A stretch of 47,666 bases of DNA. It comes from Candidatus Nanoarchaeia archaeon (GTDB lineage: Archaea; Nanobdellota; Nanobdellia; SCGC-AAA011-G17; JAGVZF01). The stretch's first letter is position 1. Each line of letters starts with the position of its first letter. Location of the stretch: contig DATDYQ010000048.1 in the NCBI GenBank assembly GCA_035288965.1, positions 1-47,666 on the forward strand, in the 5' to 3' direction. Below the pieces are notes generated by a model, which saw only the letters and a program-made list of their open reading frames with translations, was not told the DNA's origin and did no database searches. A program made the translations under genes and the position numbers. Positions 2,355 through 26,858 of this stretch are shown in pieces.

Positions 2355-3695
2355 ATGGAAGTTAAGTTATGTGCAGTTGGTGGTTATAGTGAATGTGGAA
2401 AAAATATGACTGCAATTAAGGTTGGAGACGAAGCTATAATTCTTGATATGGGTGTTTATCTGCCTAAAGTTATTGATTTTGAAGAAGAAGGGGGGGATAG
2501 AAATTTATTGAATAGAGATTCTTTAATAAAAATGGGGGCTGTTCCTGATGATAATGTTATTAATTCTTGGAGAGATAAAGTAAAAGCTATTATTCCAAGT
2601 CATTGTCATCTTGATCATACAGCTGCTATTCCTTATTTAGCTGGAAGATATAATGCTCCTGTTATTGGAACGCCGTTTACATTAGAAGTAATAAAAGATA
2701 TAATAAAAGATGGAAATTTGAATGTAAGAAATAAATTTAAAAGTTTAAATCCTGGAAGTACAATAAAAATTAGTAAGAATTTTGAGATTGAATTTATTAA
2801 TAGTACTCATTCAACTTTACAGACTGCAATGGTGGCTGTTCATACTCCTGCTGGAATAATATTATATACAAATGATTTTAAATTTGATAATCATCCCATA
2901 ATTGGAAAAGGTCCTGATTATAATAGATTAAGAAAACTAGGAAAAACTGGAAATGTGTTAGCTGTAATAATGGATTCTTTGTATTCAAATTATAACAGAA
3001 AAACTCCAAGTGAAAGTGTGGCTAAGGAAATGCTGAAAGATGTTTTACTTGGAACTGATAATGAAGGACATGCAATAATTGCAACAACATTTGCTTCTCA
3101 TCTAGCTAGATTAAAAAGCATAATTGAATTTGGGAAAAAATTAGATAGAAAAATAGTATTTATGGGAAGAAGCATGTATAGATATACAATGGCTGCTGAA
3201 AAATTAAAATTAGTTAGCTTTACTAAGGAAGCTGAGATTTGTAAATATGCTAACAATATAAAAAGAAAACTAAAACAGATTGAGAAAGAAGGAAGAGATA
3301 AATATCTTATAGTATGTACGGGAAATCAGGGAGAACCAAGATCAACTTTAGTAAGAATGGCCAATGGAGAACTGCCTTTTAACTTTAAAGATGAAGATCA
3401 TATAATATTTTCATGCAAGACAATTCCAGCAAAGGAAAATATTGAGAATAGAGCTGCTTTGGAAAGAAAATTGAAATCTATGAAAACTAGAATATTTACA
3501 GATATCCATCAAAGTGGACATGCTTCTAGGGAAGATATGAGAGATTTAATTGATTTAGTAAAACCTAGAAAGGTAATACCAAGTCATGGTGATAGTGGAA
3601 TGTATATTGGATTATTAGATTTAGCTAAAGAGATGGGATATAATGAGAAAGATGCAAGAATGGTAAATACTGGAGAGACTGTAAATTTGAATTAG
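2355..3695 (+). CDS. rnj: archaeal RNase J-like metallo-beta-lactamase/beta-CASP ribonuclease
   Basis: It has the HxHxDH motif (SHCHLDHTAAIPYL) and a later H motif (HQSGHASREDM). The N-terminus VKLCAVGGYSECGKNMTAIKV is typical of this family. The ORF track starts at 2298, but that ATG lies only 3 nt past the TATA-like ggtttataaatat (2283-2295). I therefore prefer ATG 2355. Confidence 0.8.
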   Translation: MEVKLCAVGGYSECGKNMTAIKVGDEAIILDMGVYLPKVIDFEEEGGDRNLLNRDSLIKMGAVPDDNVINSWRDKVKAIIPSHCHLDHTAAIPYLAGRYNAPVIGTPFTLEVIKDIIKDGNLNVRNKFKSLNPGSTIKISKNFEIEFINSTHSTLQTAMVAVHTPAGIILYTNDFKFDNHPIIGKGPDYNRLRKLGKTGNVLAVIMDSLYSNYNRKTPSESVAKEMLKDVLLGTDNEGHAIIATTFASHLARLKSIIEFGKKLDRKIVFMGRSMYRYTMAAEKLKLVSFTKEAEICKYANNIKRKLKQIEKEGRDKYLIVCTGNQGEPRSTLVRMANGELPFNFKDEDHIIFSCKTIPAKENIENRAALERKLKSMKTRIFTDIHQSGHASREDMRDLIDLVKPRKVIPSHGDSGMYIGLLDLAKEMGYNEKDARMVNTGETVNLN

Positions 3696-3748
3696 AAAGC
3701 TTTAAATATAAGATAATCTTACCAATAAGATAAACTTATTAAACTAAA

Positions 3749-7004: not shown

Positions 7005-8059
7005 ACTTTGATCAATTTATAAGAAGCTTAGAAAAGGATTCAAGAGTTGCAATACTTCATGATACTGATCCAGATGGGGTTTGTAGTGCTGTGATTGTTG
7101 CTAAAGCTGTAGAAAAGATAACTGGGAATAAGATTAAATTAAGAGTTCATCAAGATGATAGAACTGGAGATATATTTGATGAAACAATAAAAAAATTAAA
7201 AGAGAATAAGATTAATAGATTGATTATAACTGATAAACCTATTGATTATAGACCGGAAGGTGTTTTAATTGTCGAGAAGTTTGCCAAGGTTTTAATTATA
7301 GATCATCATAAAAAATATACTGATATTAACAATGAAAATATCTGCTTGTTAAAGGAAGGAAGTTATTATCCAAGCAGTAAAATTGCTTTTGATTATTTTT
7401 CAAGATATGTTAATTTAGAAGCTTTAGACTGGTTAGCTGCTGCAGGATTAATAACAGATTATGCTTTTAAATATTGGGGAGAATTTCTTGATAAAGTATT
7501 CAAAAGATATAATATAAAAAAAACTAAAGATATATTTACGAATGAGCTTGGTGAAATTGGAAGCATAATAAAATATGCTGAAGTATATAATTTAGACAAT
7601 GTTCAAGAGATTTTTGATATAATCTATAATGCAAAGAATCCTAGAGATGTCCATAAATCTAATCTAAAAAAATATTATGATAAAGTTAAAATAGAAGTTG
7701 ATAAGGCTGTAAAAGAATTCAATAAAAAGAAGGAGATTCATGGGGATTTAGATTGGTATGAAGTGAAGAGCAAATATCCTTTAACTTCTGTGATTTCTTC
7801 AATAATATCGGCAAAAAATCAAAGCAGAACATTGGTTGTGACACAAAATTTTAATGGAAGATATAATGTAAGTGCAAGAAGACAAGATCAAAAAATAGCT
7901 GTAAATGACATTCTAAGTGAAGCCGTTGTTGGATTTGAAAATGCCTCTGGTGGAGGTCATAAAACTTCTGCGGGTAGTGTTTTTAACACAAATGATTATG
8001 TGGAATTTAAAAAGCGAGTTTTAAATGATTATAAAAAAATTAAAGCTGGAAAATATTAG
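7001..8059 (+). CDS. DHH/DHHA1 family phosphoesterase (RecJ/GAN/NrnA-like)
   Basis: Motifs seen: HDTDPDGVCSA, IIDHHK (the DHH motif) and GGGHKTSAG (DHHA1). ATG 7001 overlaps the mre11 stop (ATGA). The ORF-track start at 6995 is a TTG. Confidence 0.8.
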   Translation: MNFDQFIRSLEKDSRVAILHDTDPDGVCSAVIVAKAVEKITGNKIKLRVHQDDRTGDIFDETIKKLKENKINRLIITDKPIDYRPEGVLIVEKFAKVLIIDHHKKYTDINNENICLLKEGSYYPSSKIAFDYFSRYVNLEALDWLAAAGLITDYAFKYWGEFLDKVFKRYNIKKTKDIFTNELGEIGSIIKYAEVYNLDNVQEIFDIIYNAKNPRDVHKSNLKKYYDKVKIEVDKAVKEFNKKKEIHGDLDWYEVKSKYPLTSVISSIISAKNQSRTLVVTQNFNGRYNVSARRQDQKIAVNDILSEAVVGFENASGGGHKTSAGSVFNTNDYVEFKKRVLNDYKKIKAGKY

Positions 8060-10082
8060 GAGTTATGTGAATCAAGAAATAGAGTTTCCTATAGGGAGTA
8101 TTTTATTAAGTGGGGATATAGGGAGCGGGAAGAGTACAATATTGTTGGCAATTGATTTTGCTTTATTTGGATTACAAAGAGGAAGTTTAGATGGAAATTC
8201 TTTGTTAAGGAATGGGACTAATAAGGGAAGTGTTGAATTAACATTTGATATTGATGGAAAGGAAGTTATAATAAAAAGAAGTTTGAAAAGAGTTAAAGAT
8301 TCAAGCGGGCAAGATCAAGGATATTTAATATACAATGGTAAAAAAGAAGATCTAAGTCCAGTGGAATTAAAACAAAGAGTTTTGGAATTATTCAATTATC
8401 CTCAAGAATTAGTTACAAAAAGTAAATCATTGATTTTTAGATTTACAGTTTATACGCCTCAAGAAGAGATGAAACATATATTGTTAGAAGATAAAGACTC
8501 GCGGTTAGATACTTTAAGAAAGGTTTTTGGTGTTGATAAATATAAAAGGTTAATAGAAAATTCCAATTTATTTGTAAATGCAATTAAAGTAAAGAAAAAA
8601 GAATTTAGCATGTTATTAAGCAGTTATGCTGAATTTAATGAGGAAAAAGAGAAGTTAGGAGAAGATAATAAAAGTATTGAAAGAATTACTGAAAAGTTAA
8701 AATTAGATTTAAAACATTTTGTTGATTTTAGAGAAAGATTAATTATGGAATTAAATAGTGTTGAGGATAATAACAAGAAATTAAATGAATTAAAAACCAA
8801 ATTAAGAGTAAATGAAAGTGGTTTAAATTTGAATATGAATAATTTAAATAATGCAAAAAATGATATGGTTGATTTAAAGAAGAAAATTGATAATTTAGAA
8901 AAAGACGTTTATGATTATTATATAGAAAAGGATACTGATGAAAAAATAAATTTAAAAGAAAATGAGATAAAGAACTTTGAAAGTGAATTAAATGAACTTA
9001 ATTTTAAATTAAATGAAGCTGTAATAAAGAAGAAAAGTTTTGATGAAATTAATAAAAGTATTAATAGTTTAGATATATGTCCATTATGTAAGCAAAAAGT
9101 AAGCGAAGATCACAAACATACTATAATTGATGAGGAAAAGAAAAAAATAAACCAATTTTTAGACAATATTCCCATAATAGATATTAGAATTAATCTAATA
9201 AACAAAGAAAGAGAGAAGTTAAGAAAAGAGATTGATGAGTTAAAGGAAATTAAAAGTAAATATGAATATCATTTATTAAAAAAGAGAGATTTAGAAGATA
9301 AAAGAGAGAGATTTGATAAGCTAAGGAATGATGATATTAAAATAAATAATGAGATAAATAACTTAAAGAAAGATATTGAATTATTAAATATGGAGATTAG
9401 TCAATTTAAAGATATAGAAATAGAATATTCTAGGTTAAAAAGAGAGATAGAAGATATAAGAGAAAAAGAGAAAATTATCGAAATTGATATTAAAAGCAGA
9501 GAGAATAAGATTAAGGATAACAATGAAAGATTAAGTATATTAAAAAAGAACATAGAAAGATTAGAAATAATAAAGAATAATTTAACAAAGTTAAATGAAA
9601 TACAATACTGGATTGATGAAAATTTGATTAATTTGTTTAATACAATGGAGAGACATATAATGTTAAGAGTTCATAACGACTTTTCCAATTTATTTGATAG
9701 GTGGTTTAACATATTAATTGATGATGAGAATTTAAATGTGAAACTTGATGATGAATTTACTCCATTAATTGAACAGAATGGATATAATATTGATTATAAC
9801 TTTCTATCTGGAGGAGAAAAAACAGCCGCTGCTTTAGCTTACAGATTAAGCTTGAATCAAGTTATTAATAATTTAATAAGTGCCATCAAAACAAAAGATT
9901 TATTGATATTGGATGAACCGACAGATGGATTTAGTGAAGATCAATTAGACAGAATAAGAATTTTGTTAGAAGAGATTAATGTAAAACAAATAATAATAGT
10001 AAGTCATGAAAGCAAGATTGAAAGTTTTGTGGAAAATGTGATAAGATTTAATAAAAGAGATCATGTAAGTGAAATCATATAA
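8025..10082 (+). CDS. rad50: Rad50 ATPase (short, 685 aa)
   Basis: Walker A is GDIGSGKST. A long K/E/N-rich coiled coil carries a CPLC zinc hook. The signature motif is LSGGEKTAAALA and Walker B is LLILDEPTDG. Confidence 0.88.
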   Translation: MIIKKLKLENIRSYVNQEIEFPIGSILLSGDIGSGKSTILLAIDFALFGLQRGSLDGNSLLRNGTNKGSVELTFDIDGKEVIIKRSLKRVKDSSGQDQGYLIYNGKKEDLSPVELKQRVLELFNYPQELVTKSKSLIFRFTVYTPQEEMKHILLEDKDSRLDTLRKVFGVDKYKRLIENSNLFVNAIKVKKKEFSMLLSSYAEFNEEKEKLGEDNKSIERITEKLKLDLKHFVDFRERLIMELNSVEDNNKKLNELKTKLRVNESGLNLNMNNLNNAKNDMVDLKKKIDNLEKDVYDYYIEKDTDEKINLKENEIKNFESELNELNFKLNEAVIKKKSFDEINKSINSLDICPLCKQKVSEDHKHTIIDEEKKKINQFLDNIPIIDIRINLINKEREKLRKEIDELKEIKSKYEYHLLKKRDLEDKRERFDKLRNDDIKINNEINNLKKDIELLNMEISQFKDIEIEYSRLKREIEDIREKEKIIEIDIKSRENKIKDNNERLSILKKNIERLEIIKNNLTKLNEIQYWIDENLINLFNTMERHIMLRVHNDFSNLFDRWFNILIDDENLNVKLDDEFTPLIEQNGYNIDYNFLSGGEKTAAALAYRLSLNQVINNLISAIKTKDLLILDEPTDGFSEDQLDRIRILLEEINVKQIIIVSHESKIESFVENVIRFNKRDHVSEII

Positions 10083-17671: not shown

Positions 17672-17857
17672 ATGGAAGATTATTATCAGGTGCTGTTAGA
17701 TTATGTTAAGCCAGATGATGATAATGTTAGAAAACATTCTCTCCTTTTAGATAATCCAATAACTAAAGAAACTAGAATTCCTGATTTAGAGCAGTTAGTA
17801 ATAGATAAAGAAACTAAATCTTTGTTTCCAAAAAAAAATGAAAAGAAGATTTCTTAA
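17672..17857 (+). CDS. small ORF (61 aa); possibly the frameshifted N-terminus of the downstream transglutaminase-like protein
   Basis: It sits at the canonical distance from a promoter motif. It runs through an A9 homopolymer (17830-17838) that also contains the ATG of the 805-aa ORF in another frame. Confidence 0.3.
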   Translation: MEDYYQVLLDYVKPDDDNVRKHSLLLDNPITKETRIPDLEQLVIDKETKSLFPKKNEKKIS

Positions 17858-20255
17858 TGCTTTTGAGATGTATTTAACACGTTTTCCATTTTACAGTCAA
17901 GAGTTAATACATACTGAAATGGAATTGTCTAAAAAAGAATTTATAAACTTTACAAATAAAATCGATAGGGAAGATAGTACAAGAGCGTTGCTTAACTTTT
18001 GTGGTTATGATGTGGAAGGATTGGATTCAGCTAGAGATATATTTGAATTTGAACTTAAAAAATGGCAAGATAATAAAGATTATTATGTTCCTGTAAGAGA
18101 TTTCTTTGGGCCTTTTATTCCAGAGAATATTATTAATCTAGATGATCCTTATTCAGAAGAATTAATGAATCCGTTAAGACATAGCAGAGATTTTAGTCGT
18201 TATTTAATTTCAATTGCTGCTCTGCCATTTTCTTTAATGGCTCTTTTGCCTGGAGCCTTGTTATCTAAATTTTTTAATAATAATGATACGTCAGAACCTT
18301 TAGATAAAAGAGAAACTGACTTTAATACTAGGGATAAAAGTGATAGTTCTAGCTTTTTTGATAATCTTAAATATAAACTAGCTGATTGGTTAGAATGGTT
18401 TAAAGATATGAATTTAGTTGCTACATATAATAATGATTCAGATTTATTTTTTGTAGAACATTTGATATCAGATTTTCATTCTTCTAATGATAGAATAAAA
18501 GATTTATATAGAAATGGAGTGGCACACAAGGCTTCTAGTGTTTTAACTTCGTCAACAGATATTGAAGATGATGGTTTAGAGCTGGAATTTATTAATGGAA
18601 GTGCTCCCATAGACAAATCAAATATACCACTTCCGATGTTTTACTCTTTATTTGAAACTAGAGATAATGTTGCTAAGATGTACAGATGTAATTGGAATTT
18701 AGATGATACAATAAATAGTCAACTTAGTGCAAATCTTAGACTACCTGAAAAATTCATAAATAGAATTGATGAACTAGTTAAAGGAGAAAAATCAATTGAT
18801 AAAATAAAAGATGAAGTTAAAGAGATGTTTATTTATAAAAAGCCTAAAAAATATAAGGGATTAAGCAGATTTGAATCGGCTGCAGTTTCTATGAATGGTG
18901 TTTGTCAGGATGTTAATTTTTTTCTTTGGCATATTTTAAGGAAAAAAGGAATTCCTAGCTATCTTGCTGTGGGCTTGCAGGGAAAAAATGGAGGAATTAC
19001 CAGAGATTCTGGACATGCAAAAGTTATAGCTTATGACAAAGATAAAAAAGAATGGGGGGAATATGATTCAACTCCAAGAAAAGAAGATGTTGAAATATAT
19101 GAAATGAAAAGAGGATCAAAACAACCAAGCATAGATATTGCTTTCTTGAGAAAAGGTTTGGGTTATTTAAGTTATCCTATCTATATGGGATTAAGTTTTG
19201 GAATTGGAGCTATGGTAACTGGAATAAGATTTACCAAACAAAAAACATTAGAAGGTATGATTATGGCTGAAAAGAGGATTTGTAAAAATGTCTTAGATGA
19301 TTTAGAAGAACATCTTAATAGATTTGATGATAATCTAAATAATGTTGATAAAAATCAAATGTTGTTATTTGAAGAGAAAGAAAAAATCAAAGATGAAACT
19401 ATAGAAAATTCCAGAGATATCATGAATATGTCCAATATTCCGATAATTACTAATGATTCTGAAACAAATCATGAAATTGGAAAGATAGAAAAACTGTTTA
19501 ATCCTTTTAAAATTCTTTATCAGATTGATGAACTAAAATATGTTGTTGATACTCTCCCAGAATATGTTAAAAGGTATCATTATTTTGTTATGGCTGAAAA
19601 TGTTTTTAATGATGTTTTAATAACTAAAGGAGAATTATTTCCATTTACACCAAAAAGACCTGATGAATGGAAAAATGTTATGTTAAATTTATTTAATACC
19701 TTTGCCGAAATTAAAGAGCCTCCACATCCTTTAGAAACAAGACAGCCACGAAGATATTATTATAAAGCTAAAAGGGGAATGTCTGTTAAAATAGATGATG
19801 AAATAACAACTTGGGTAAAAAAACCAAGATTCATTAAAGATTTACATTCTGATGAAAAAAATGTTTTTATAGATGATAGCCATAACAATAATCTGGAAAC
19901 TGTGAAGAACATCTATGAAGGAATGACTGATTATAATGAATGGTATATGGTGACTCATGAAAACGTGGATATGAAACCAGATGTCAAACATTACACATAT
20001 TCTCCTCAAATATTATCTTTTGATAAAATGTGGGCTGTTTCTTCTGAAGAATATTGGACATTATTTGGAAATATAATAAAAAAACATATAAAAAATAGTG
20101 AATCTGTTTTTAGATATATGTGGGAAGATTTAGTTAAAATGCATAATGAGTATAGGAAAGGTAATGGTATGTATTCTTTGACAATCAATTATAACAATGG
20201 CAATATGTTTACAGAAACAGATGAAAAATATGTTGAATTAGAAGATCCATGGTAA
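17838..20255 (+). CDS. membrane protein with transglutaminase-like Cys-His-Asp core
   Basis: The core GVCQDVNFFLWHILRKKGIPSYLAVG...SGHAKVIAY...WGEYDSTP matches the transglutaminase-like cysteine protease pattern. TM segments flank it: YLISIAALPFSLMALLPGALL and YPIYMGLSFGIGAMVTGI. Confidence 0.65.
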   Translation: MKRRFLNAFEMYLTRFPFYSQELIHTEMELSKKEFINFTNKIDREDSTRALLNFCGYDVEGLDSARDIFEFELKKWQDNKDYYVPVRDFFGPFIPENIINLDDPYSEELMNPLRHSRDFSRYLISIAALPFSLMALLPGALLSKFFNNNDTSEPLDKRETDFNTRDKSDSSSFFDNLKYKLADWLEWFKDMNLVATYNNDSDLFFVEHLISDFHSSNDRIKDLYRNGVAHKASSVLTSSTDIEDDGLELEFINGSAPIDKSNIPLPMFYSLFETRDNVAKMYRCNWNLDDTINSQLSANLRLPEKFINRIDELVKGEKSIDKIKDEVKEMFIYKKPKKYKGLSRFESAAVSMNGVCQDVNFFLWHILRKKGIPSYLAVGLQGKNGGITRDSGHAKVIAYDKDKKEWGEYDSTPRKEDVEIYEMKRGSKQPSIDIAFLRKGLGYLSYPIYMGLSFGIGAMVTGIRFTKQKTLEGMIMAEKRICKNVLDDLEEHLNRFDDNLNNVDKNQMLLFEEKEKIKDETIENSRDIMNMSNIPIITNDSETNHEIGKIEKLFNPFKILYQIDELKYVVDTLPEYVKRYHYFVMAENVFNDVLITKGELFPFTPKRPDEWKNVMLNLFNTFAEIKEPPHPLETRQPRRYYYKAKRGMSVKIDDEITTWVKKPRFIKDLHSDEKNVFIDDSHNNNLETVKNIYEGMTDYNEWYMVTHENVDMKPDVKHYTYSPQILSFDKMWAVSSEEYWTLFGNIIKKHIKNSESVFRYMWEDLVKMHNEYRKGNGMYSLTINYNNGNMFTETDEKYVELEDPW

Positions 20256-20377: not shown

Positions 20378-21895
20378 ATGAGAAACAAAGAATACGAAGA
20401 AATGCAAACAACTATTCTTTTATTAGAAGAGGAAGTAAATCGACTACGAGAGCCTCCTTACAAAGCAGGAACTGTTTTACAACTTGGAAAAAAAACAGTA
20501 CGACTTATTGTAGATGGAGGTAGTTTTATCGAAGTTGCTATGCCAAGTGATAAAGGTTTAAGTGCAGAAATTAGGAAGAAATTAAGATCAGGAGCAAGAG
20601 TTATTTTGAATGGAGCTGGAGCTATTGTTGATTATTCTGAATTTGATAAGACCATATGTGGAGAAATTACCACTGTTGATGAAATTAACTGTGATAGATT
20701 GAGAGTTAATGTAAGAGGAGAACCAAGAATGGTTTTAAACACTCTAAAAGATGTTAAGGTAGGAGATGAGGTTCAATTGGATTTATCTGGATTACTTGTT
20801 ACTGAAAGATTTGATAGAAAAAAAACACGTTATGTTTTGGAAAAAATTCCGCAAGCACCTTGGAATAATATTGGCGGATTGGAAAAAGCAATTTGTGATA
20901 TTAGGGGAGAAATTGAAGAACCTTTTTTACACAGAGATATCTTTAATAGATATGGACAAGGTCCTGCTAAGGGAATTTTGCTTTACGGACCACCCGGATG
21001 TGGAAAAACAATGATTGCAAAATCTATTGCATATAATCTTGCAAAATTAACAGGCAATGGAGCAGGACATTTTATAAGTGTGAAAGGTCCTGAGATCCTG
21101 GATAAATTTGTAGGAAATTCTGAAGCAAATATCAGAAGAATTTATGGTGCTGCACGTGATGAAGCTAAAGAAAGTAATGTACCAACAGTTGTTTTCATTG
21201 ATGAGGCAGAATCAATCATGAAAGCAAGAGGTAGTGGAATCTCGACTGATGTTTATGACTCTATTGTTCCGCAATTTCTTGCAGAAATGAGTGGTTTAAA
21301 TGGGGGGGATTACGAAGTAGTCACTGTATTGGCCACTAACAGAGAGGACATAATTGATCCTGCAATTTTAAGAGATGGTAGGGTGGATATAAAAATTCGA
21401 ATTCCTAGACCAGACAGAAAGGGAGCTGAACAAATTTTTAAAATATATTTAAAAGATAGACCTATGCGTGGGTTAATGGCTTCTACCAAAGGTCTTGTTG
21501 AAGAAATTGTTGAAAGAATCTACGATGACGAAACAGCAGCATATAATATAATTTCTCCGACTGGAATTATTGGGAGTTTTGGTTATCAAAATTTAATAAG
21601 TGGTGCAATGATAAAAGGAATTATTGATAGGGGATGTAAATCTGCAATTCGAAGAGAAATTGAAGGCGGAAAGAAAGGGTTAGAAAAAGAAGATTTGTAT
21701 CGTGCTGTTAAAGAAAAATTTGATGAGAATTCCGAATTCACGCAAGCACTTGTAAGGGACGATTGGGAAGTTGTTTTTGGTGGAGAAGGAAAGCAATTAT
21801 ACGAAATGTATCGTCATGGACATTTACATTTACAAAAGGCTGATGAACAAAGTGGGAATGATGTTAAACAAAATGAAGGGAGGCAAAGTAAATGA
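20378..21895 (+). CDS. AAA+ unfoldase with N-terminal coiled coil and two OB-like domains; resembles Mpa/ARC more than PAN; no HbYX C-terminus
   Basis: The coiled coil EEMQTTILLLEEEVNRLREPP is followed by OB-like segments. Walker A is GPPGCGKT and Walker B is VVFIDEAES, with NREDIIDPAILRDGRVD downstream. The post-AAA segment is SGAMIKGIIDRGCKSAI...DDWEVV. The protein ends ...NEGRQSK. Confidence 0.85.
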   Translation: MRNKEYEEMQTTILLLEEEVNRLREPPYKAGTVLQLGKKTVRLIVDGGSFIEVAMPSDKGLSAEIRKKLRSGARVILNGAGAIVDYSEFDKTICGEITTVDEINCDRLRVNVRGEPRMVLNTLKDVKVGDEVQLDLSGLLVTERFDRKKTRYVLEKIPQAPWNNIGGLEKAICDIRGEIEEPFLHRDIFNRYGQGPAKGILLYGPPGCGKTMIAKSIAYNLAKLTGNGAGHFISVKGPEILDKFVGNSEANIRRIYGAARDEAKESNVPTVVFIDEAESIMKARGSGISTDVYDSIVPQFLAEMSGLNGGDYEVVTVLATNREDIIDPAILRDGRVDIKIRIPRPDRKGAEQIFKIYLKDRPMRGLMASTKGLVEEIVERIYDDETAAYNIISPTGIIGSFGYQNLISGAMIKGIIDRGCKSAIRREIEGGKKGLEKEDLYRAVKEKFDENSEFTQALVRDDWEVVFGGEGKQLYEMYRHGHLHLQKADEQSGNDVKQNEGRQSK

Positions 21896-22353
21896 GAATG
21901 TTTGGAAGAAAAGAAACTGCTGCTGTTAAACCATTTGCGAAGCAAGAAGTTTTAGAGAATGAGGTTGTAAAACCGATTATTGCAACTGCAAGACCTGGCT
22001 TAACTGATGAGTCTTCTGCTTTAATGAGAAGACTTCCTTCAAATTATGCAGGAAGAACTGTAAGAGATGTACTAAGCTATATGGTTGATTTCAATGAAAG
22101 CAGATCTGCAGAAGCAACAAGTCGATATGGTAAAAAAGTTAAAGATAGTGAAGCTGCTATAATAACAAGCTTGAAGAATGAACTTGGAGCTGCAGGAAGT
22201 GTTGTTGTTATTAATGGTAAAAATGCAAAATTAACTGACAGAATAGACCAATATTTAGTTGATAGAACTAAAAATGTCAGCGGAAGAAATATTCAATATC
22301 AAGAACTTGAGATAGAAGTTTCTGCAGTTCAGCAAGGCGGTTACAGGTTTTAA
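21892..22353 (+). CDS. ubiquitin-like beta-grasp (ThiS/MoaD/SAMP-like) protein with a ~50-aa N-terminal extension, ending GG-YRF
   Basis: The C-terminal part ...GSVVVINGKNAKLTDRIDQYLVD...ELEIEVSAVQQGG|YRF follows the ThiS/MoaD-type layout. The GG is at aa 149-150 (nt 22336-22341), followed by three residues. ATGA overlap with the ATPase gene, and GGGAGG upstream. Confidence 0.6.
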   Translation: MRMFGRKETAAVKPFAKQEVLENEVVKPIIATARPGLTDESSALMRRLPSNYAGRTVRDVLSYMVDFNESRSAEATSRYGKKVKDSEAAIITSLKNELGAAGSVVVINGKNAKLTDRIDQYLVDRTKNVSGRNIQYQELEIEVSAVQQGGYRF

Positions 22354-22396: not shown

Positions 22397-23398
22397 ATGG
22401 CAGACTTAGATATACTTTTAACTGGGGAAGAGCCAGAAGAAAAATTAGAAGGAGAAAAAAATTTTGGATTAAATGAATTATATATTTCTAAATATGCTTA
22501 TGAAAAAGCCTTTAGATATGCAGAACTTGTTATGCGAGAGAGGAGCGATAGTGTTGAAATCGGGGGATTTTTAACTACACAAAAAGGTGCCAATGACAGG
22601 GTTGCAAGAGATGCATTCCTTGCTCGTGATCAAGAAGTTAGTCGGGGATTTTATAAATTAAGTGCAGAAGATGTTTTGAAGGCTAAGAAAGAGATTGAAG
22701 ATAAAGAACAAAAAATTATTGGGTGGTGGCATAGTCATGGAAGATTTGATGCTTATCATTCTGAAACTGATAGCAAAAATCAGATGGTTTTGCTTAATCA
22801 AATTTCCACTTCTAATTATATTCCCTTTCCTAAAGAAAGAGATTATGATAGTTTGCAAAGCAGAATAGAAGGTAATAAAATAATCTTTTGGGATCCTGAA
22901 GATCCTATCAAGAAATTTGAACTTGAGTTAAAAGAAGAAAATCCTGAATTGGTAGCAAAGAGATTGAAGATTTTAGAGGATAAAAAAATTGGATTTGCTT
23001 ATAGTTTTGTTGTTAATAATCATAGATGGTTGAGAAAAAGAGTTCCTTATTTCGAAATTGCAACAAGAGATTTATGTGTAGACTGTATTAATGCAAATGA
23101 TGTGAGTGTGCCTGTTGGATACAAGATTTTTGATGAAGGGGAATATAAAATTGATGATGAACAATTGATTGCAGAAATTAATGAGCGGGTTCATGTTTTT
23201 GGTGAAGGTCATAAAAATAAAAAATATCTATTGCCTTCAACTTTTGAAGAGCAACGGATGGCTGGAACGCTTTCTAAACCAGATTTCGGATCGATATCTA
23301 AGGTAAGAAAACGTAAATACTACAGAACTGATGAAGGAAGTTTTAAAGGTAAAAAGAAAGAAGAGCAAAAAGACGATTCTAAAGAGGTAGGAAGATGA
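22397..23398 (+). CDS. JAB/MPN+ (JAMM) metalloprotease with ~200-aa C-terminal extension
   Basis: An exact JAMM motif, HSHGRFDAYHSETD (H-x-H-x7-S-x2-D), lies at nt 22730-22771. The upstream Glu is in SVEIGGFL. Confidence 0.85.
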   Translation: MADLDILLTGEEPEEKLEGEKNFGLNELYISKYAYEKAFRYAELVMRERSDSVEIGGFLTTQKGANDRVARDAFLARDQEVSRGFYKLSAEDVLKAKKEIEDKEQKIIGWWHSHGRFDAYHSETDSKNQMVLLNQISTSNYIPFPKERDYDSLQSRIEGNKIIFWDPEDPIKKFELELKEENPELVAKRLKILEDKKIGFAYSFVVNNHRWLRKRVPYFEIATRDLCVDCINANDVSVPVGYKIFDEGEYKIDDEQLIAEINERVHVFGEGHKNKKYLLPSTFEEQRMAGTLSKPDFGSISKVRKRKYYRTDEGSFKGKKKEEQKDDSKEVGR

Positions 23399-24078
23399 AA
23401 TATAAAATAGGACAGAAAGTTTTTATAAAAAGAGCAAATGGGGAGTTGGACCATAAACCAAAAGGAAGTTATTATTATGGGGGTAGTTTCAGGGATCTTC
23501 CGTTAGGATCAAAGGGAACTATTAATGAAATTGTCAATGAAAATATGATTGGTCTAAGAGTGGAAAAACAAAATTATGGTTATAGGTGGTATGTGCATCC
23601 CAGTGAGTTACCTACACCTGAAGAAATAAATTTACATGAAAGAAAGGAACAGGAAAAGATTAATTCTCAGTTAAAAAGTATTCTGTTAGCTGATGAACCA
23701 ATTGTTAAAATGTCGATAACAAGACAAAAATCCTTTGATCCGAAGTTTAATGCAAGAGAAGAGTTTGTTGTTTGGATAAGGGAAGAATTTCCGGAATTAA
23801 AAAAATATTCAAAGAACAAAAGAAAATATTCTGATTTAATAAATAGAAAAAAGGAAGTTATGGAAGGAGCAAAGAAAGCTTATGAACACGCACTTAAAAC
23901 TACTGACAGTTGTGTTAGGGTTGATTTTATTGAAAGCTTTAAGGAGCTTAATAAGCGTATGGGAAATTTTGCTAATGGGCTAGATGAGTTCGTTACCTTT
24001 ATCGAGTATGTTTCTGCTAATCTGATAAACAAAAAAGATAGACATTATGGAACAACTTTAGCAAGAAGAATAAAATGA
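23395..24078 (+). CDS. unrecognised family, paralogue 1 (SH3/KOW-like N-domain plus helical module with H-x7-C)
   Basis: 227 aa. It shares LLADEP..K....SFDPKFNAREEFVVWIREEFPEL...EHALKTTDSC...IEYVSANL...RHYGT with ORFs 25490 and 26121. ATGA overlaps at both ends. Confidence 0.6.
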   Translation: MKYKIGQKVFIKRANGELDHKPKGSYYYGGSFRDLPLGSKGTINEIVNENMIGLRVEKQNYGYRWYVHPSELPTPEEINLHERKEQEKINSQLKSILLADEPIVKMSITRQKSFDPKFNAREEFVVWIREEFPELKKYSKNKRKYSDLINRKKEVMEGAKKAYEHALKTTDSCVRVDFIESFKELNKRMGNFANGLDEFVTFIEYVSANLINKKDRHYGTTLARRIK

Positions 24079-25493
24079 CGAATGACAAAAATATACGATA
24101 TGACAGACAGCAAAGAATTCAAAACTGGCAGCAAGAAAGATTAGCAAATGCAAAGATAGCAATTATTGGATCTGGACAATTAGCCCAATTTACAGCAGCT
24201 TCACTTGTCGCTCTTGGTGTAGGAAATGTAGAAATATATTGTAATGAAAAAGTTAATGGAAAGGAATTCTTAACTTTTGATAGTAATGGAGATGATAAGT
24301 CTAGCTTACTCGAAAAGAAGTTGCATGAAATGAATCCTGATGCTAATGTTAGAAGTTTTAAAATGGAAAGTGATGATAATATACTTTCTTTAGTTGATAA
24401 TCCTGATATAATTTTAGAGTTGACAAATTCATCTGAATTAAAAGAAAAAATTATGGAATATGCAAATGCACATAATGTAAAAATAATTTCTGCATCAACC
24501 GGAAAAACAGGAGGAGAATTATATTTTGTTAAACCGGGAGATGATTATTCGAGTGCAAAACTTACAAAATACGATGGAGAAAAACAGAGAACATTCACTA
24601 GCGAAATTTTTGGTGGTATGATTACAGAAGAAGTTAGAAAGATTTTGATGCCTCTTAAAGAAGGAGAAGATGCTGTTAAGAATTTGGCTTATGATGCGAC
24701 TGCTGAAAAGAGATTCAGTAAAGAAGGAGATTTTGATGCACAGCCTTTTGAAGATTTATCACAAAAAAGAATTTTAATTATCGGAGCAGGAGCTCTTGGG
24801 AATTTTGTTGCTTTGGGAGCTACGCTTGAGGGAATCGGAAAAATTGATATTTTAGATTTTGATGAAGTTGAACCTCATAATCTAAACAGACAAATTATGT
24901 TTTACGATGCTGTTGGAAAGAAAAAATCTTTAGCACTAGCAGAAAAGATCAAACAAATTAACCCTGACATCGAAGTTAAAGGATTGGTTGAAAAATTAGA
25001 TGAGAATACAACTTATTTTTTAAACAATAACCCAGACTTAATTTTGGATTGTGTTGATAACTTTGCAACTAGAGCTATAACAAATTACTTTGCTGTTCAT
25101 TATGGAATTCCGTTAGTAAGTGGTGGAACAAATTCAAATTCTGGGCAAGTTGTTGTTTATGAGCCTGGACAGAGTGCCTGTTTAGAATGTAAACTTGGTG
25201 TTGAACAAGCATTAGGGGTAGCTTTACAAGGAAGCAAGTGCACAGACGCACCTAATCCAAGTGTAATCATGACAAATGAAATTATTGGAGGAATGATGGT
25301 TGGAGAAGCTTTGAAAGTTTTAGATAAAGGATATGGAACTTCAGTTTCAAGAATTTTGAAATATGATTCAACAGCTCCTGTTAGGGGTGGTTTAATCGGA
25401 GCTAGTAATGCATGTGAATGTTCAAGGGGAGAAATTAAGGAATGGCTGCAAGGGGTTAAAGAGATGTTTTCTTTAGCTAAGGATGAAAAATGA
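24075..25493 (+). CDS. E1-like activating enzyme with tandem ThiF/MoeB-type domains (degenerate N-terminal, active C-terminal)
   Basis: Domain 1 is RYDRQ...KIAIIGSGQLAQ...GVGNVEIYCNEKV and lacks the DxD...NLNRQ motif. Domain 2 is RILIIGAGALGN...IDILDFDEVEPHNLNRQ...LDCVDNFATR...CLEC...GSKCTDAP...CEC. Confidence 0.85.
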   Translation: MTNDKNIRYDRQQRIQNWQQERLANAKIAIIGSGQLAQFTAASLVALGVGNVEIYCNEKVNGKEFLTFDSNGDDKSSLLEKKLHEMNPDANVRSFKMESDDNILSLVDNPDIILELTNSSELKEKIMEYANAHNVKIISASTGKTGGELYFVKPGDDYSSAKLTKYDGEKQRTFTSEIFGGMITEEVRKILMPLKEGEDAVKNLAYDATAEKRFSKEGDFDAQPFEDLSQKRILIIGAGALGNFVALGATLEGIGKIDILDFDEVEPHNLNRQIMFYDAVGKKKSLALAEKIKQINPDIEVKGLVEKLDENTTYFLNNNPDLILDCVDNFATRAITNYFAVHYGIPLVSGGTNSNSGQVVVYEPGQSACLECKLGVEQALGVALQGSKCTDAPNPSVIMTNEIIGGMMVGEALKVLDKGYGTSVSRILKYDSTAPVRGGLIGASNACECSRGEIKEWLQGVKEMFSLAKDEK

Positions 25494-26116
25494 CTTTTGA
25501 TATTGGAGAAAAAGTGAAGATTGTAAAAACAGAGGGATTTAATAGAGGATGTTATAGAAATGGACTTTCTTTATTCCAAATTCATCTAGGAACTAAAGGA
25601 GTGATTACAAATATACAAAATAATAAAGATGCTTTTATTTATGTTAGAATAGGGGGAGAGGATTATTCTTTTCTACCAACTGAATTAGCTTATTGTGAAG
25701 AAGGAAAAAGTAAGCATGAAAAGAAAAAATTGGAGAGTTTGCTTATTGCAGAAGAGCCTGTTGATAAAATTAAAAAAGAAAAATCCTTTGATCCGAAGTT
25801 TAATGCAAGAGAAGAGTTTGTTGTTTGGGTAAGGGAAGAATTTCCGGAATTAATGTATCAAAAGGGACATTATGAAATACCTTCTAAAAGAAGAAGAGAA
25901 GTTTATGAAGCTGCAATAGCTGCATGTCGGCATGGTATTGAAACAACTGGAGCTTGTGTGCAAAGGACATTTCAAAATAATTTTAGTAATTTAATGACGG
26001 ATGGTTGCTCAGATCTTGAAGTAAGAATATATAGCATAGTATCTTTAATAGAATGTGTTTCTGCTAATCTGGGAAACGAAAATAGACATTATGGAACAAT
26101 TTTAGCAAGAAAATAA
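25490..26116 (+). CDS. unrecognised family, paralogue 2 (SH3/KOW-like N-domain plus helical module with H-x7-C)
   Basis: 208 aa. Motifs: LLIAEEPVDKIKKEKSFDPKFNAREEFVVWVREEFPEL...RHGIETTGAC...IECVSANLGNENRHYGT. ATGA overlap with the E1 gene. Confidence 0.6.
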   Translation: MTFDIGEKVKIVKTEGFNRGCYRNGLSLFQIHLGTKGVITNIQNNKDAFIYVRIGGEDYSFLPTELAYCEEGKSKHEKKKLESLLIAEEPVDKIKKEKSFDPKFNAREEFVVWVREEFPELMYQKGHYEIPSKRRREVYEAAIAACRHGIETTGACVQRTFQNNFSNLMTDGCSDLEVRIYSIVSLIECVSANLGNENRHYGTILARK

Positions 26117-26120
26117 TAAA

Positions 26121-26858
26121 ATGACTAATGATAAACTAGATGAATTATTAAACGGGAAAGAGCCAGAAGAAAGATTAGAAGTGAATGTTAATCGGGAATT
26201 CAAGCCTAAAATTAATGTGAGAGAAGAATTTGTATTGTGGATCCGTGAACAGTTTCCGGAACTTGGAGAATATATAAAAAAAGGAGGCATATATAAAAGT
26301 TTAGAAACTCGTGAGGAGGAGATTTATCAAGCTGCTCTGGGAGCAGTAAATCATGGTTTAACCTCTACTGAAGATTGTGCAAGCACACGTTTACATTCTG
26401 GATGGGTTGAATTTGAAAAAGGATTTGGGGTAAAGGGAAATCCTAGAAGAAGAGCAAAGAGTTTAGGAAGTTTTGTTAAGGCATTAGAAGACCTCTCAAT
26501 TAGCTTAGGTGGAGACAAACATTATACGAGGGCCGGAAAATTTTTAAATGGTAAACCTTATAGTGATTATTTGTATAGAAATCTGCGAGCTTTTGTTTAT
26601 ATGGTGGGAGAGGAAAATGGCAAGGATACAAAATACCTAGTTTTTGATGTAAAACAAAAATTTGAAGGCAATAATATCCCTGTTTTGATAGGTGAACTTC
26701 GTGGATTATCAAAATGGGATTTTGAAAGTTTAGGGAGAATTGCCTCTAAATTTCAGGGAACTGAGATAGATTTTATTGAAAAGGTTGATAAACTTGTTCC
26801 ACAAAAAGGATCATATGACTATTCACATGGATATTATGGCAGTGTTAAGTATAAGTGA
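26121..26858 (+). CDS. unrecognised family, paralogue 3 (helical module first, then a distinct ~110-aa C-terminal domain)
   Basis: 245 aa. Motifs: LLNGKEPEERLEVNVNREFKPKINVREEFVLWIREQFPEL...NHGLTSTEDC...LEDLSISLGGDKHYT. It starts MTNDK, as the E1 does. Confidence 0.6.
   Translation: MTNDKLDELLNGKEPEERLEVNVNREFKPKINVREEFVLWIREQFPELGEYIKKGGIYKSLETREEEIYQAALGAVNHGLTSTEDCASTRLHSGWVEFEKGFGVKGNPRRRAKSLGSFVKALEDLSISLGGDKHYTRAGKFLNGKPYSDYLYRNLRAFVYMVGEENGKDTKYLVFDVKQKFEGNNIPVLIGELRGLSKWDFESLGRIASKFQGTEIDFIEKVDKLVPQKGSYDYSHGYYGSVKYK

Follow-up and report, generated by a model that had tools for sequence, protein, structure and literature searches.

To our knowledge, every characterised cascade for a ubiquitin-like protein (Ubl) that places a carrier between the activating enzyme (E1) and the target uses a conjugating enzyme (E2) of the UBC fold, either separate or fused to the E1, and the only alternatives known to us are E2-free systems such as SAMP and Urm1. 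Here we describe an operon from Candidatus Nanoarchaeia archaeon that lies on the forward strand of contig DATDYQ010000048.1 (assembly GCA_035288965.1, positions 1 to 47,666; this 47,666-nucleotide stretch is referred to as the window). The sequence is archaeal, with ~30% G+C, and the organism is of the DPANN type with a tiny genome. The closely packed genes encode, in order, an AAA+ unfoldase (AAA), a putative Ubl precursor, a JAMM/MPN+ metalloprotease (JAB), paralogue 1 of a helical protein family (para1), an E1, and paralogues 2 and 3 (para2 and para3; Table 1). The operon is thus of a known kind, an E1-Ubl-JAB conjugation operon, and holds a new protein family; no description of either was found in the literature searched. 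We propose, at a probability of roughly 0.4, that the helical module of this family is an E1-proximal, Cys-dependent acceptor of the operon's Ubl, which would make it a functional analogue of an E2 or a ligase (E3) on a non-UBC fold.

Among described systems, SAMP/UbaA/HvJAMM1 and Urm1/Uba4 resemble the locus in having an E1 of the MoeB/ThiF type whose crossover loop holds a Cys and which has a Zn site, a small modifier that ends in Gly-Gly, a JAMM isopeptidase, an archaeal setting and no UBC E2. They differ from it in that the E1 here appears to fuse a degenerate and an active half, the 150-aa Ubl precursor is extended at its N-terminus and tailed at its C-terminus, the operon itself encodes an ARC-like AAA, and 3–6 Cys-bearing helical copies surround the E1; SAMP has no such partner. 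The ubiquitin operons of Caldiarchaeum subterraneum and of Asgard archaea are likewise compact archaeal sets of a Ubl, an E1 and a JAMM/Rpn11-like protease (PMC5654768, PMC3082918), but theirs contain a canonical UBC E2 and a RING E3, whereas here neither is detectable and the helical family stands in their place. The bacterial Bub and Bil operons are comparable as diverged, ubiquitination-like loci whose chemistry is unexpected and whose accessory families are novel (PMC11601596, PMC10557695). However, their E2s are UBC-related, Bub uses Ser oxyesters, and both are bacterial and defence-linked, while the present operon is archaeal, sits on the chromosome beside housekeeping genes and keeps Cys in its E1 and in the new family.

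Compared with UBC E2s themselves (Prok-E2_A-E, the Cap2 E2 of CBASS, and BilB), the family shares the position beside E1, Ubl and JAB genes, one Cys that is strictly conserved and has a His upstream of it, and an expansion of paralogues with a Cys-less variant that recalls the ubiquitin E2 variants (UEVs). It is unlike them in being all-alpha as modelled, in having no beta-meander, no HPN motif and no match in sequence or structure, and in partnering an E1 that lacks a ubiquitin-fold domain (UFD). The AAA protein, for its part, recalls Mpa/ARC of the Pup-proteasome system: it comprises coiled-coil, OB and AAA regions, all covered by a full-length match to the actinobacterial Mpa/ARC model TIGR03689, to which it is nearer than to PAN, although the score of 378 bits falls under the 505-bit cutoff. 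Unlike that system, the host is archaeal, no Pup, Dop or PafA is present, and the tag would be activated by an E1 rather than by a glutamine-synthetase-like ligase. The C-terminus of the AAA protein (...NEGRQSK) is unconserved among orthologues and carries no HbYX-type motif, so this protein need not couple to a 20S proteasome.

Three paralogues interleaved with the E1 gene

The open reading frames (ORFs) at 23395-24078, 25490-26116 and 26121-26858 encode true paralogues. Para1 aligns with para2 at a BLASTP E of 2e-43 (41% identity across 232 columns) and with para3 at 3e-23 (35% identity across 135 columns), and the common module of ~115–135 aa has a mean column identity of 61% in the three-way alignment. 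A first-pass annotation, made from the letters alone, had delineated the same ORFs as carriers of a triplicated module; its coordinates were exact, and the alignments bear out the paralogy. All the motifs it had listed were found again, namely LLx[AG][DEK]EP and F[DK]PK[FI]N[AV]REEFVxWIRE[EQ]FPEL in the opening part, followed by H[AG][LI]x[TS]TxxC, [IL]Ex[VL]Sx[NS]L and [RK]HY, and a codon-by-codon check gave the same residue numbers for the His-Cys pair (H165/C173, H148/C156 and H78/C86 in para1, para2 and para3). ATGA start/stop overlaps occur at four gene joins (AAA/Ubl, JAB/para1, para1/E1 and E1/para2), and because of the latter two the E1 is translationally coupled to family genes on both sides.

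Within para1, 85 nt (23716..23800, + strand) are 94% identical to 25769-25853 in para2, and outside this stretch the two genes have diverged far more. A 33-kb contig that is almost identical to the window and comes from the same population (L011; related contigs carry handles of this form throughout) encodes a para1/para2 chimera at 3030-3698, and its E1 gene is gone. The crossover lies within ~50 nt that are identical between para1 and para2, inside the 85-nt stretch; either this contig is a true variant in which recombination or gene conversion deleted the E1, or the assembly collapsed here. In a 757-bp ENA contig (P0003), the C-terminal two-thirds of para2 are joined to an HNH-like N-terminus (PF13392), which is most likely a chimeric assembly.

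Predicted fold and conservation of the Cys module

AlphaFold2 (AF2) models of para1 and para3 were built with family alignments. The para1 model has a predicted local distance difference test score (pLDDT) of 82 overall and above 90 in the module. It displays an SH3-like barrel (residues 1–67, with strands at 8–10, 40–48, 51–56 and 65–67), a long helix (~75–98) that leads into an LD-like motif (to residue 103), and an all-alpha Cys module (~108–220, with helices at 120–131, 135–140, 146–150, 152–169, 172–187 and 192–206). The strands within residues 8–67 back the N-terminal SH3-like barrel that had been proposed for para1 and para2. In para3 (pLDDT 86), an N-terminal helix at residues 3–11 (~85) bears the LD-like motif and is followed by the Cys module (~25–135) with its helical bundle at 33–125. 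The C-terminal extension of ~110 aa noted earlier is real and folds at pLDDT 88–96, its core being a small alpha/beta domain of three strands and two helices (residues ~155–225). Neither model contains a beta-strand within the module, which is predicted to be an all-alpha bundle and not a UBC fold, in agreement with the helical character that the first-pass annotation had noticed. The Cys occupies the first turn of its helix, behind an S/T-T N-cap, and the His is at the end of the helix before.

Foldseek searches with the para1 and para3 models against the PDB, and with para1 against BFVD, returned nothing at E<1e-3, so at this threshold the predicted structures match no known family, non-enzymatic ones included. 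No solved E2 occurs among the listed PDB matches of the two models, no NEL or HECT catalytic domain among the best 50 listed PDB matches, and no protease among the listed Foldseek matches or the Pfam hits of the family; the residue after the family Cys is V, A or H, not the x-D of a NEL CxD-type loop. Most of the para1 hits come from the barrel, whose best PDB matches are weak (eL21, PWWP, chromo, SH3 and the Mind-bomb SH3 repeat; E ~1e-2, TM(target) <=0.55), as are its BFVD matches to DUF4314 and the Mib SH3 repeat. The nearest neighbours of the module are generic up-down four-helix bundles (PsbQ, the LD-motif binders FAT and GIT, and designed proteins) at E 0.3–3, which is noise level. The FAT/GIT bundles, which bind paxillin LD motifs (LDxLLxxL), share with the family an up-down bundle and a short amphipathic LDxLL helix; however, with a Foldseek E of 2–3, a probability of 0.1–0.16 and no sequence relation, the likeness is an analogy of binding mode and not evidence of homology. 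The C-terminal domain of para3 had no Foldseek match.

Sequence searches agreed with the first-pass annotation that the proteins belong to no described family. No family was found for the three paralogues in Pfam (E<=0.1), NCBIfam or PADLOC; among 75 members scanned against Pfam at E<=1, the sole recurrent match was a weak one of SH3_15 to the barrel (4 of the 75 members, best E 4e-4, under the gathering score); and a PDB sequence-profile search of the family yielded a single type of match, to a de novo coiled coil. The Pfam models UQ_con, Prok-E2_A-E, UFC1 and ATG3/ATG10 did not match the family, and no UBC, Prok-E2, UFC1 or ATG3-type match was obtained for any protein of the operon (Pfam, NCBIfam and PADLOC), which bears out the earlier statement that the operon has no detectable UBC-type E2. 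The HPN tripeptide is absent, the family motif being H-[GA]-x-x-[ST]-T-x-x-C with no P-N. The resemblance to the HPN-to-Cys spacing of E2s that had been pointed out is therefore superficial: there is no P-N, the fold is predicted to be another, and the His and Cys flank a helix-loop-helix turn. In fold, profile, HPN motif and structural match alike, the helical family falls outside the UBC E2s.

Conservation was read from an alignment of 82 sequences, with Cys and His counted on the 64 long forms that cover the column. The Cys is kept in all of these (64/64), in orthologues and paralogues alike, and the His in 53/64. The His-x7-Cys pair, which had been called invariant, is so in the three copies of the window, but across the family this holds for the Cys and not for the His. 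Seven of the 11 His-less members belong to an 'AW[KE]G...C-H...FPY' subtype that has a His directly after the Cys, a pattern that looks like a relocated dyad partner. Read this way, the dyad becomes an invariant Cys with a movable His, set on what the alignment suggests is an older binding or structural core. A metal site formed by His165, Cys173 and His217 was considered and rejected, since the C-H subtype swaps the HY tail for FPY and loses His165, which leaves no constant set of ligands.

The family comprises several types. Barrel types carry 1–3 barrels plus the module and occur in several copies per operon. The para3 type (module plus C-terminal domain) is present exactly once per operon, as scored with a hidden Markov model (HMM) of the C-terminal domain; it is 41–62% identical across loci and is the best-conserved member of each operon. 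Module-only forms make up a third type. Finally, a short type of ~105–115 aa, ending in ...IEWE, is found in L001, L004, L005, L006 and L009 and not in the window; its gene lies downstream of the para3-type gene in other operons, and the protein is without His, Cys, LD-like motif and HYGT tail alike.

Operon linkage, probable docking motif and partner proteins

A word-indexed search across 5.8 billion clusters retrieved 16 family proteins, and an exhaustive HMMER search of 1.84 billion representatives gave 76 matches, one of them a repetitive false positive, leaving ~75. All named relatives are metagenome-assembled genomes of 'Nanoarchaeota archaeon', and a scan of viral contigs revealed no copy. 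Six independent long contigs could be counted (the window, L001, L004, L005, L006 and L007), and the order AAA-Ubl-JAB-(family)n-E1-(family)n is kept in all six. By HMM the window has three family copies and the other five contigs have 4, 4, 5, 4 and 6, so that the survey of copy number beside E1/JAB genes proposed in the first-pass annotation gives 3–6 per operon. In a metagenome scan run with a 15-sequence family alignment, every family copy on 13/13 contigs adjoins E1, JAB, AAA, Ubl or further family copies. Wherever flanks exist, the family is found only inside AAA-Ubl-JAB-E1 operons.

A second link between the family and the operon is an LD-like motif. The regular expression L-x2-3-[LMIV]-L-x1-3-[EDKNS]-[EDSP]-P, applied to ORFs of at least 60 aa on both strands, gave four hits among the 68 ORFs of the window: the three paralogues and the extreme N-terminus of the JAB. 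The same pattern, family plus JAB, is seen in L001, L004 and L006, and in L005 and L007 the motif is confined to the family. LDxLLxGEEP is probably a common docking peptide by which JAB and the Cys-bearing paralogues dock at one site; since the motif is common to these two only, they may compete for or share a site on a core component. Its likeliest partner is the E1 or the Ubl, because two distant operons (L013 and L014, described below) keep LDxLL and the barrel with no adjoining AAA gene.

The C-terminal half of the E1 aligns with E. coli MoeB and includes the Zn motifs CLEC(369) and CEC(447). Its Cys389 (GSKCT) aligns to C187 of MoeB, the crossover-loop Cys, and is kept in 9/9 archaeal E1s. 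The N-terminal half is degenerate, reading GSGQLA and lacking the DxD...NLxRQ nucleotide motif, and the protein as a whole appears to be a single-chain pseudo-heterodimer of an inactive and an active half. Such fusions are typical of eukaryotic E1s and unusual for prokaryotic E1s of the MoeB/ThiF type. The metal motif of the JAB is intact, with HSHGRFDAYHSETD fitting HxH-x7-S-xx-D. As far as sequence can tell, the operon thus has both the ThiF/MoeB-type E1 with a crossover-loop Cys and the JAMM protease expected of E1-Ubl-JAB operons.

The Ubl precursor ends in ...SAVQQGG-YRF, and in 6/6 orthologues QQGG is invariant and is followed by a variable tail of 3–10 residues (YRF, YRI, YQRRF or FRAPGLRDLR), which fits a precursor trimmed by the JAB. 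A poorly conserved N-terminal extension of ~25–35 residues precedes a core of ~110–125 residues (PIIATARPGL...QQGG); speculatively, this extension might serve the AAA unfoldase as an unstructured start region, by analogy with the N-terminus of Pup. The Ubl sequence had no match in the PDB, and its homologues form 101 clusters that include records named Pacearchaeota and Woesearchaeota.

Distant homologues of the Ubl (35–45% identical) sit in Ubl-X-JAB-E1 operons (L012–L014), where X proteins of 456–558 aa replace the helical family and lack the Cys module; in L013 and L014 the AAA gene is not in the immediate neighbourhood. Four of the five X proteins, all but the 456-aa one of L013 (12045-13415), carry the SH3-like barrel of the family, which is N-terminal except in the 557-aa protein of L012 (10482-12155), where it is internal. 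The X proteins also have an LDxLL element (identified by eye), a large unknown domain and a C-terminus of the form ...IIQGG(x)RR, and they matched nothing in Pfam or the PDB. The barrel and LD elements thus look like a reusable docking chassis.

Some further genes were observed at related loci. A Ser/Thr protein kinase gene followed by a divergent gene of ~300 aa lies upstream of the operon in four loci and not in the window. In L001 the ~300-aa gene gives a weak Pfam match of the MazE/AbrB type, and by impression it may be PhoU-like; the pair may constitute a regulatory link to the operon. A conserved protein of ~150 aa with the motif RPDN-x8-GLRCC-x-HP precedes the AAA gene in L004 and L012 and adjoins a Cys-less short paralogue in L009; it is not in the window and has no Pfam hit.

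In the window, rpoH, rpoB'', rpoB' and rpoA' come next after the operon, at 27.4–34.7 kb. An origin in a defence island or mobile element was rejected, as the operon is chromosomal, adjoins RNA polymerase and ribosomal genes and has no integrase; its PADLOC matches come from the generic E1, JAB and AAA domains only. Directly upstream of the AAA gene, at 17838-20255, an 805-aa protein with a transglutaminase-like core (PF01841, 1.3e-5) was considered as an operon member and rejected, since none of the related loci has a homologue; the conserved operon probably does not include it. A strong purine skew at 8025-10082 (GC skew 0.51, G+C 24%) is ordinary, being due to a Lys/Glu/Asn-rich Rad50-type SMC ATPase with a CxxC zinc hook (ICPLCK).

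Table 1. Features of the operon and of related loci, with positions in the window or in the contig named.
Feature	Sequence	Position	Strand	Evidence or remark
ARC/Mpa-like AAA+ unfoldase, 505 aa	window	20378..21895	+	TIGR03689 pup_AAA (NCBIfam)
Putative Ubl precursor, 153 aa	window	21892..22353	+	orthologue alignment, GG invariant
JAMM/MPN+ metalloprotease (JAB), 333 aa	window	22397..23398	+	Pfam Prok-JAB 2.7e-8
LD-like LDILLTGEEP, JAB extreme N-terminus	window	22406..22435	+	regular expression
Para1, 227 aa	window	23395..24078	+	ORF; AF2 model; family HMM E 6.6e-83
LD-like LKSILLADEP, para1	window	23671..23700	+	regular expression
His165...Cys173, para1	window	23887..23913	+	His ends helix 152-169, Cys starts helix 172-187
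E1, 472 aa, two ThiF halves	window	24075..25493	+	Pfam ThiF 9.9e-70, 2 stretches
Para2, 208 aa	window	25490..26116	+	para1-like architecture; family HMM E 1.5e-71
LD-like LESLLIAEEP, para2	window	25730..25759	+	regular expression
His148...Cys156, para2	window	25931..25957	+	codon check
Para3, 245 aa	window	26121..26858	+	AF2 model pLDDT 86; orthologues 41-62% identical
LD-like LDELLNGKEP, para3, predicted helical residues 3-11	window	26136..26165	+	regular expression, AF2
His78...Cys86, para3	window	26352..26378	+	Cys at N-terminus of helix 85-102
Short type	L001	11351-11671		
Short type	L004	10888-11214		
Short type	L006	12933-13259		
Short type	L009	1591-1917		
X proteins	L012	10482-12155, 15776-17452		
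X proteins	L013	10429-12048, 12045-13415		
X protein	L014	10406-11950		
Kinase and ~300-aa gene pair	L001	1-2588		
Kinase and ~300-aa gene pair	L005	1920-4766		
Kinase and ~300-aa gene pair	L006	2071-4612		
Kinase and ~300-aa gene pair	L012	1-2340		
RPDN...GLRCC.HP protein	L004	3897-4382		
RPDN...GLRCC.HP protein	L012	7940-8365		
RPDN...GLRCC.HP protein	L009	1152-1601		
RPDN...GLRCC.HP protein	L010	2-241		

A proposed Cys-dependent Ubl acceptor and its alternatives

Paralogy, operon linkage, translational coupling, conservation, fold class and the lack of a recognisable E2 were all observed, and on them we base a proposal in which every chemical step is inferred. The JAMM protease would trim the YRF tail off the Ubl precursor and expose Gly-Gly, after which the active C-terminal half of the E1 would adenylate the Ubl and take it onto Cys389, as homology to MoeB, ThiF and UbaA suggests. 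The LDxLLxGEEP helix, together with the SH3-like barrel in the barrel types, would dock the family onto what is most likely the E1 or the Ubl. The Ubl would then be handed to the invariant Cys at the helix N-terminus of the bundle, possibly helped by a His that most members have eight residues before the Cys and one subtype has immediately behind it. The accessory domains (1–3 barrels, or the alpha/beta C-terminal domain of para3) may determine which targets are chosen or where the proteins act, and in other operons the short paralogue that has no Cys may be a UEV-like, non-catalytic partner. Conjugates would be handled by the ARC/Mpa-like AAA, with JAB recycling the Ubl.

Several observations argue for such an acceptor. 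The linkage to the E1 is exclusive and translationally coupled, and the window offers no other candidate for a carrier; every long form has the helix-N-terminal Cys, with a His that can relocate. The E1 crossover-loop Cys, kept in all nine orthologues, makes a thiol relay chemically plausible, and the 3–6 paralogues, with their variable accessory domains and a Cys-less variant, are suggestive of an E2/UEV- and E3-like diversification. Fuller still, and doubtful in our estimation, is the idea of a DPANN cascade in which this family of all-helical Cys carriers, with 3–6 paralogues including the UEV-like Cys-less variant, performs the E2/E3 step, docks through the LD-like motif as the JAMM protease does and feeds an Mpa/ARC-like unfoldase, so that a thioester relay would have been invented independently.

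A number of points weigh against an acceptor role. We know of no all-alpha E2. Conjugation by the archaeal SAMP/UbaA system proceeds with no E2, and the same is true of Urm1/Uba4 (PMC9574740), so an E2 is not a necessity here. The E1 comprises two ThiF halves only, with no UFD-like, E2-recruiting domain (Pfam). The beta-grasp fold of the Ubl is putative, as hhalign comparisons with approximate sequences of ThiS, MoaD, SAMP and Urm1 were not significant. In those operons that have it, the RPDN...GLRCC.HP protein could be a cryptic UBC-like E2. The barrel-plus-LDxLL proteins that end in IIQGG(x)RR hint that proteins of this build may be clients of the E1 rather than enzymes. Lastly, the residues that are universal across the subtypes are F114, N119, F124, W127, F132, P133, Y145, R151 and E154 (para1 numbering) and not the His or Cys, and for this reason the ancestral function of the module may be binding.

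The last point leads to a rather unlikely alternative, in which the family members are non-catalytic adaptors or scaffolds: the four-helix-type bundle and the LD-like helix would hold E1, JAB, AAA ring and Ubl-conjugates together as one machine, a kind of primitive 'lid', with the barrels contacting a conserved partner and the Cys serving structure or redox regulation. The residues common to all subtypes, the Cys-less short form included, are aromatic or charged and lie in the first helices, the LD-like motif is also on the JAB, and the barrel-plus-LDxLL chassis is reused in the sister operons without the Cys module, as a docking device might be. The LD-motif-binding FAT-type and PsbQ-type bundles are the best structural neighbours, but their non-significant matches are those at noise level noted above, and only by analogy does a set of paralogues next to an AAA ring and a JAMM protease bring to mind the design of the proteasome lid. 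What adaptors would leave unexplained is the Cys of all 64 long forms, its place at a helix N-terminus and its mobile His partner; nor do L013 and L014 have the AAA gene in their immediate neighbourhood. Alternatively, and in our judgement quite improbably, the proteins are dedicated substrates that barrel and LD motif would bring to the E1 for tagging, at the Cys or at a Lys close by, before the AAA unfolds or remodels them. The QGG(x)RR ends of the sister proteins are consistent with E1 clients, and X proteins may be E1-activated as CD-NTases are in CBASS, where these enzymes are clients of Cap2 (PMC10097602); Urm1-type conjugation targets proteins via a reactive Cys (PMC9574740), and the translational coupling of family genes with the E1 would suit a client as well. 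However, no Lys is strongly conserved (K117 in 44/82 only), a Cys-less short form would be untaggable, the E1 has no rhodanese domain (Pfam) for Urm1-like thiocarboxylate chemistry, and it is not obvious why a reduced genome would keep 3–6 paralogous substrates merely for tagging.

Very unlikely, finally, is a novel Cys-His peptidase or isopeptidase, or else a persulfide or sulfur-relay carrier for an E1-Ubl thiocarboxylate pathway. A helix-N-terminal Cys with a nearby His is the nucleophile arrangement of papain-type enzymes, and Bub operons conceal a novel Ser-His protease family (PMC11601596), but the predicted fold is not protease-like, neither a third catalytic residue nor an oxyanion element can be discerned, 11/64 members do without the His, and the operon already has its JAMM protease. 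As for sulfur transfer, which E1s of the MoeB/ThiF type classically serve, the operon contains no rhodanese, cysteine desulfurase or Moa/Thi genes, and protein conjugation, not cofactor sulfur chemistry, is what its JAB, AAA and GG-plus-tail precursor suggest.

Should the family indeed be a Cys-dependent Ubl acceptor, it would be a second carrier family, structurally unrelated to the first, and the thioester relay would have evolved more than once; it would also be a new enzyme class to seek in the many 'E2-less' prokaryotic E1/JAB operons. The system is small and soluble and suited to reconstitution in vitro. Even if its members are adaptors or clients, the operon would represent an undescribed machine for protein tagging and unfolding, built from a fused two-domain E1, a GG-tailed Ubl of 150 aa, a JAMM protease, an Mpa-like AAA and 3–6 helical paralogues, in reduced DPANN genomes, where protein quality control is poorly understood.

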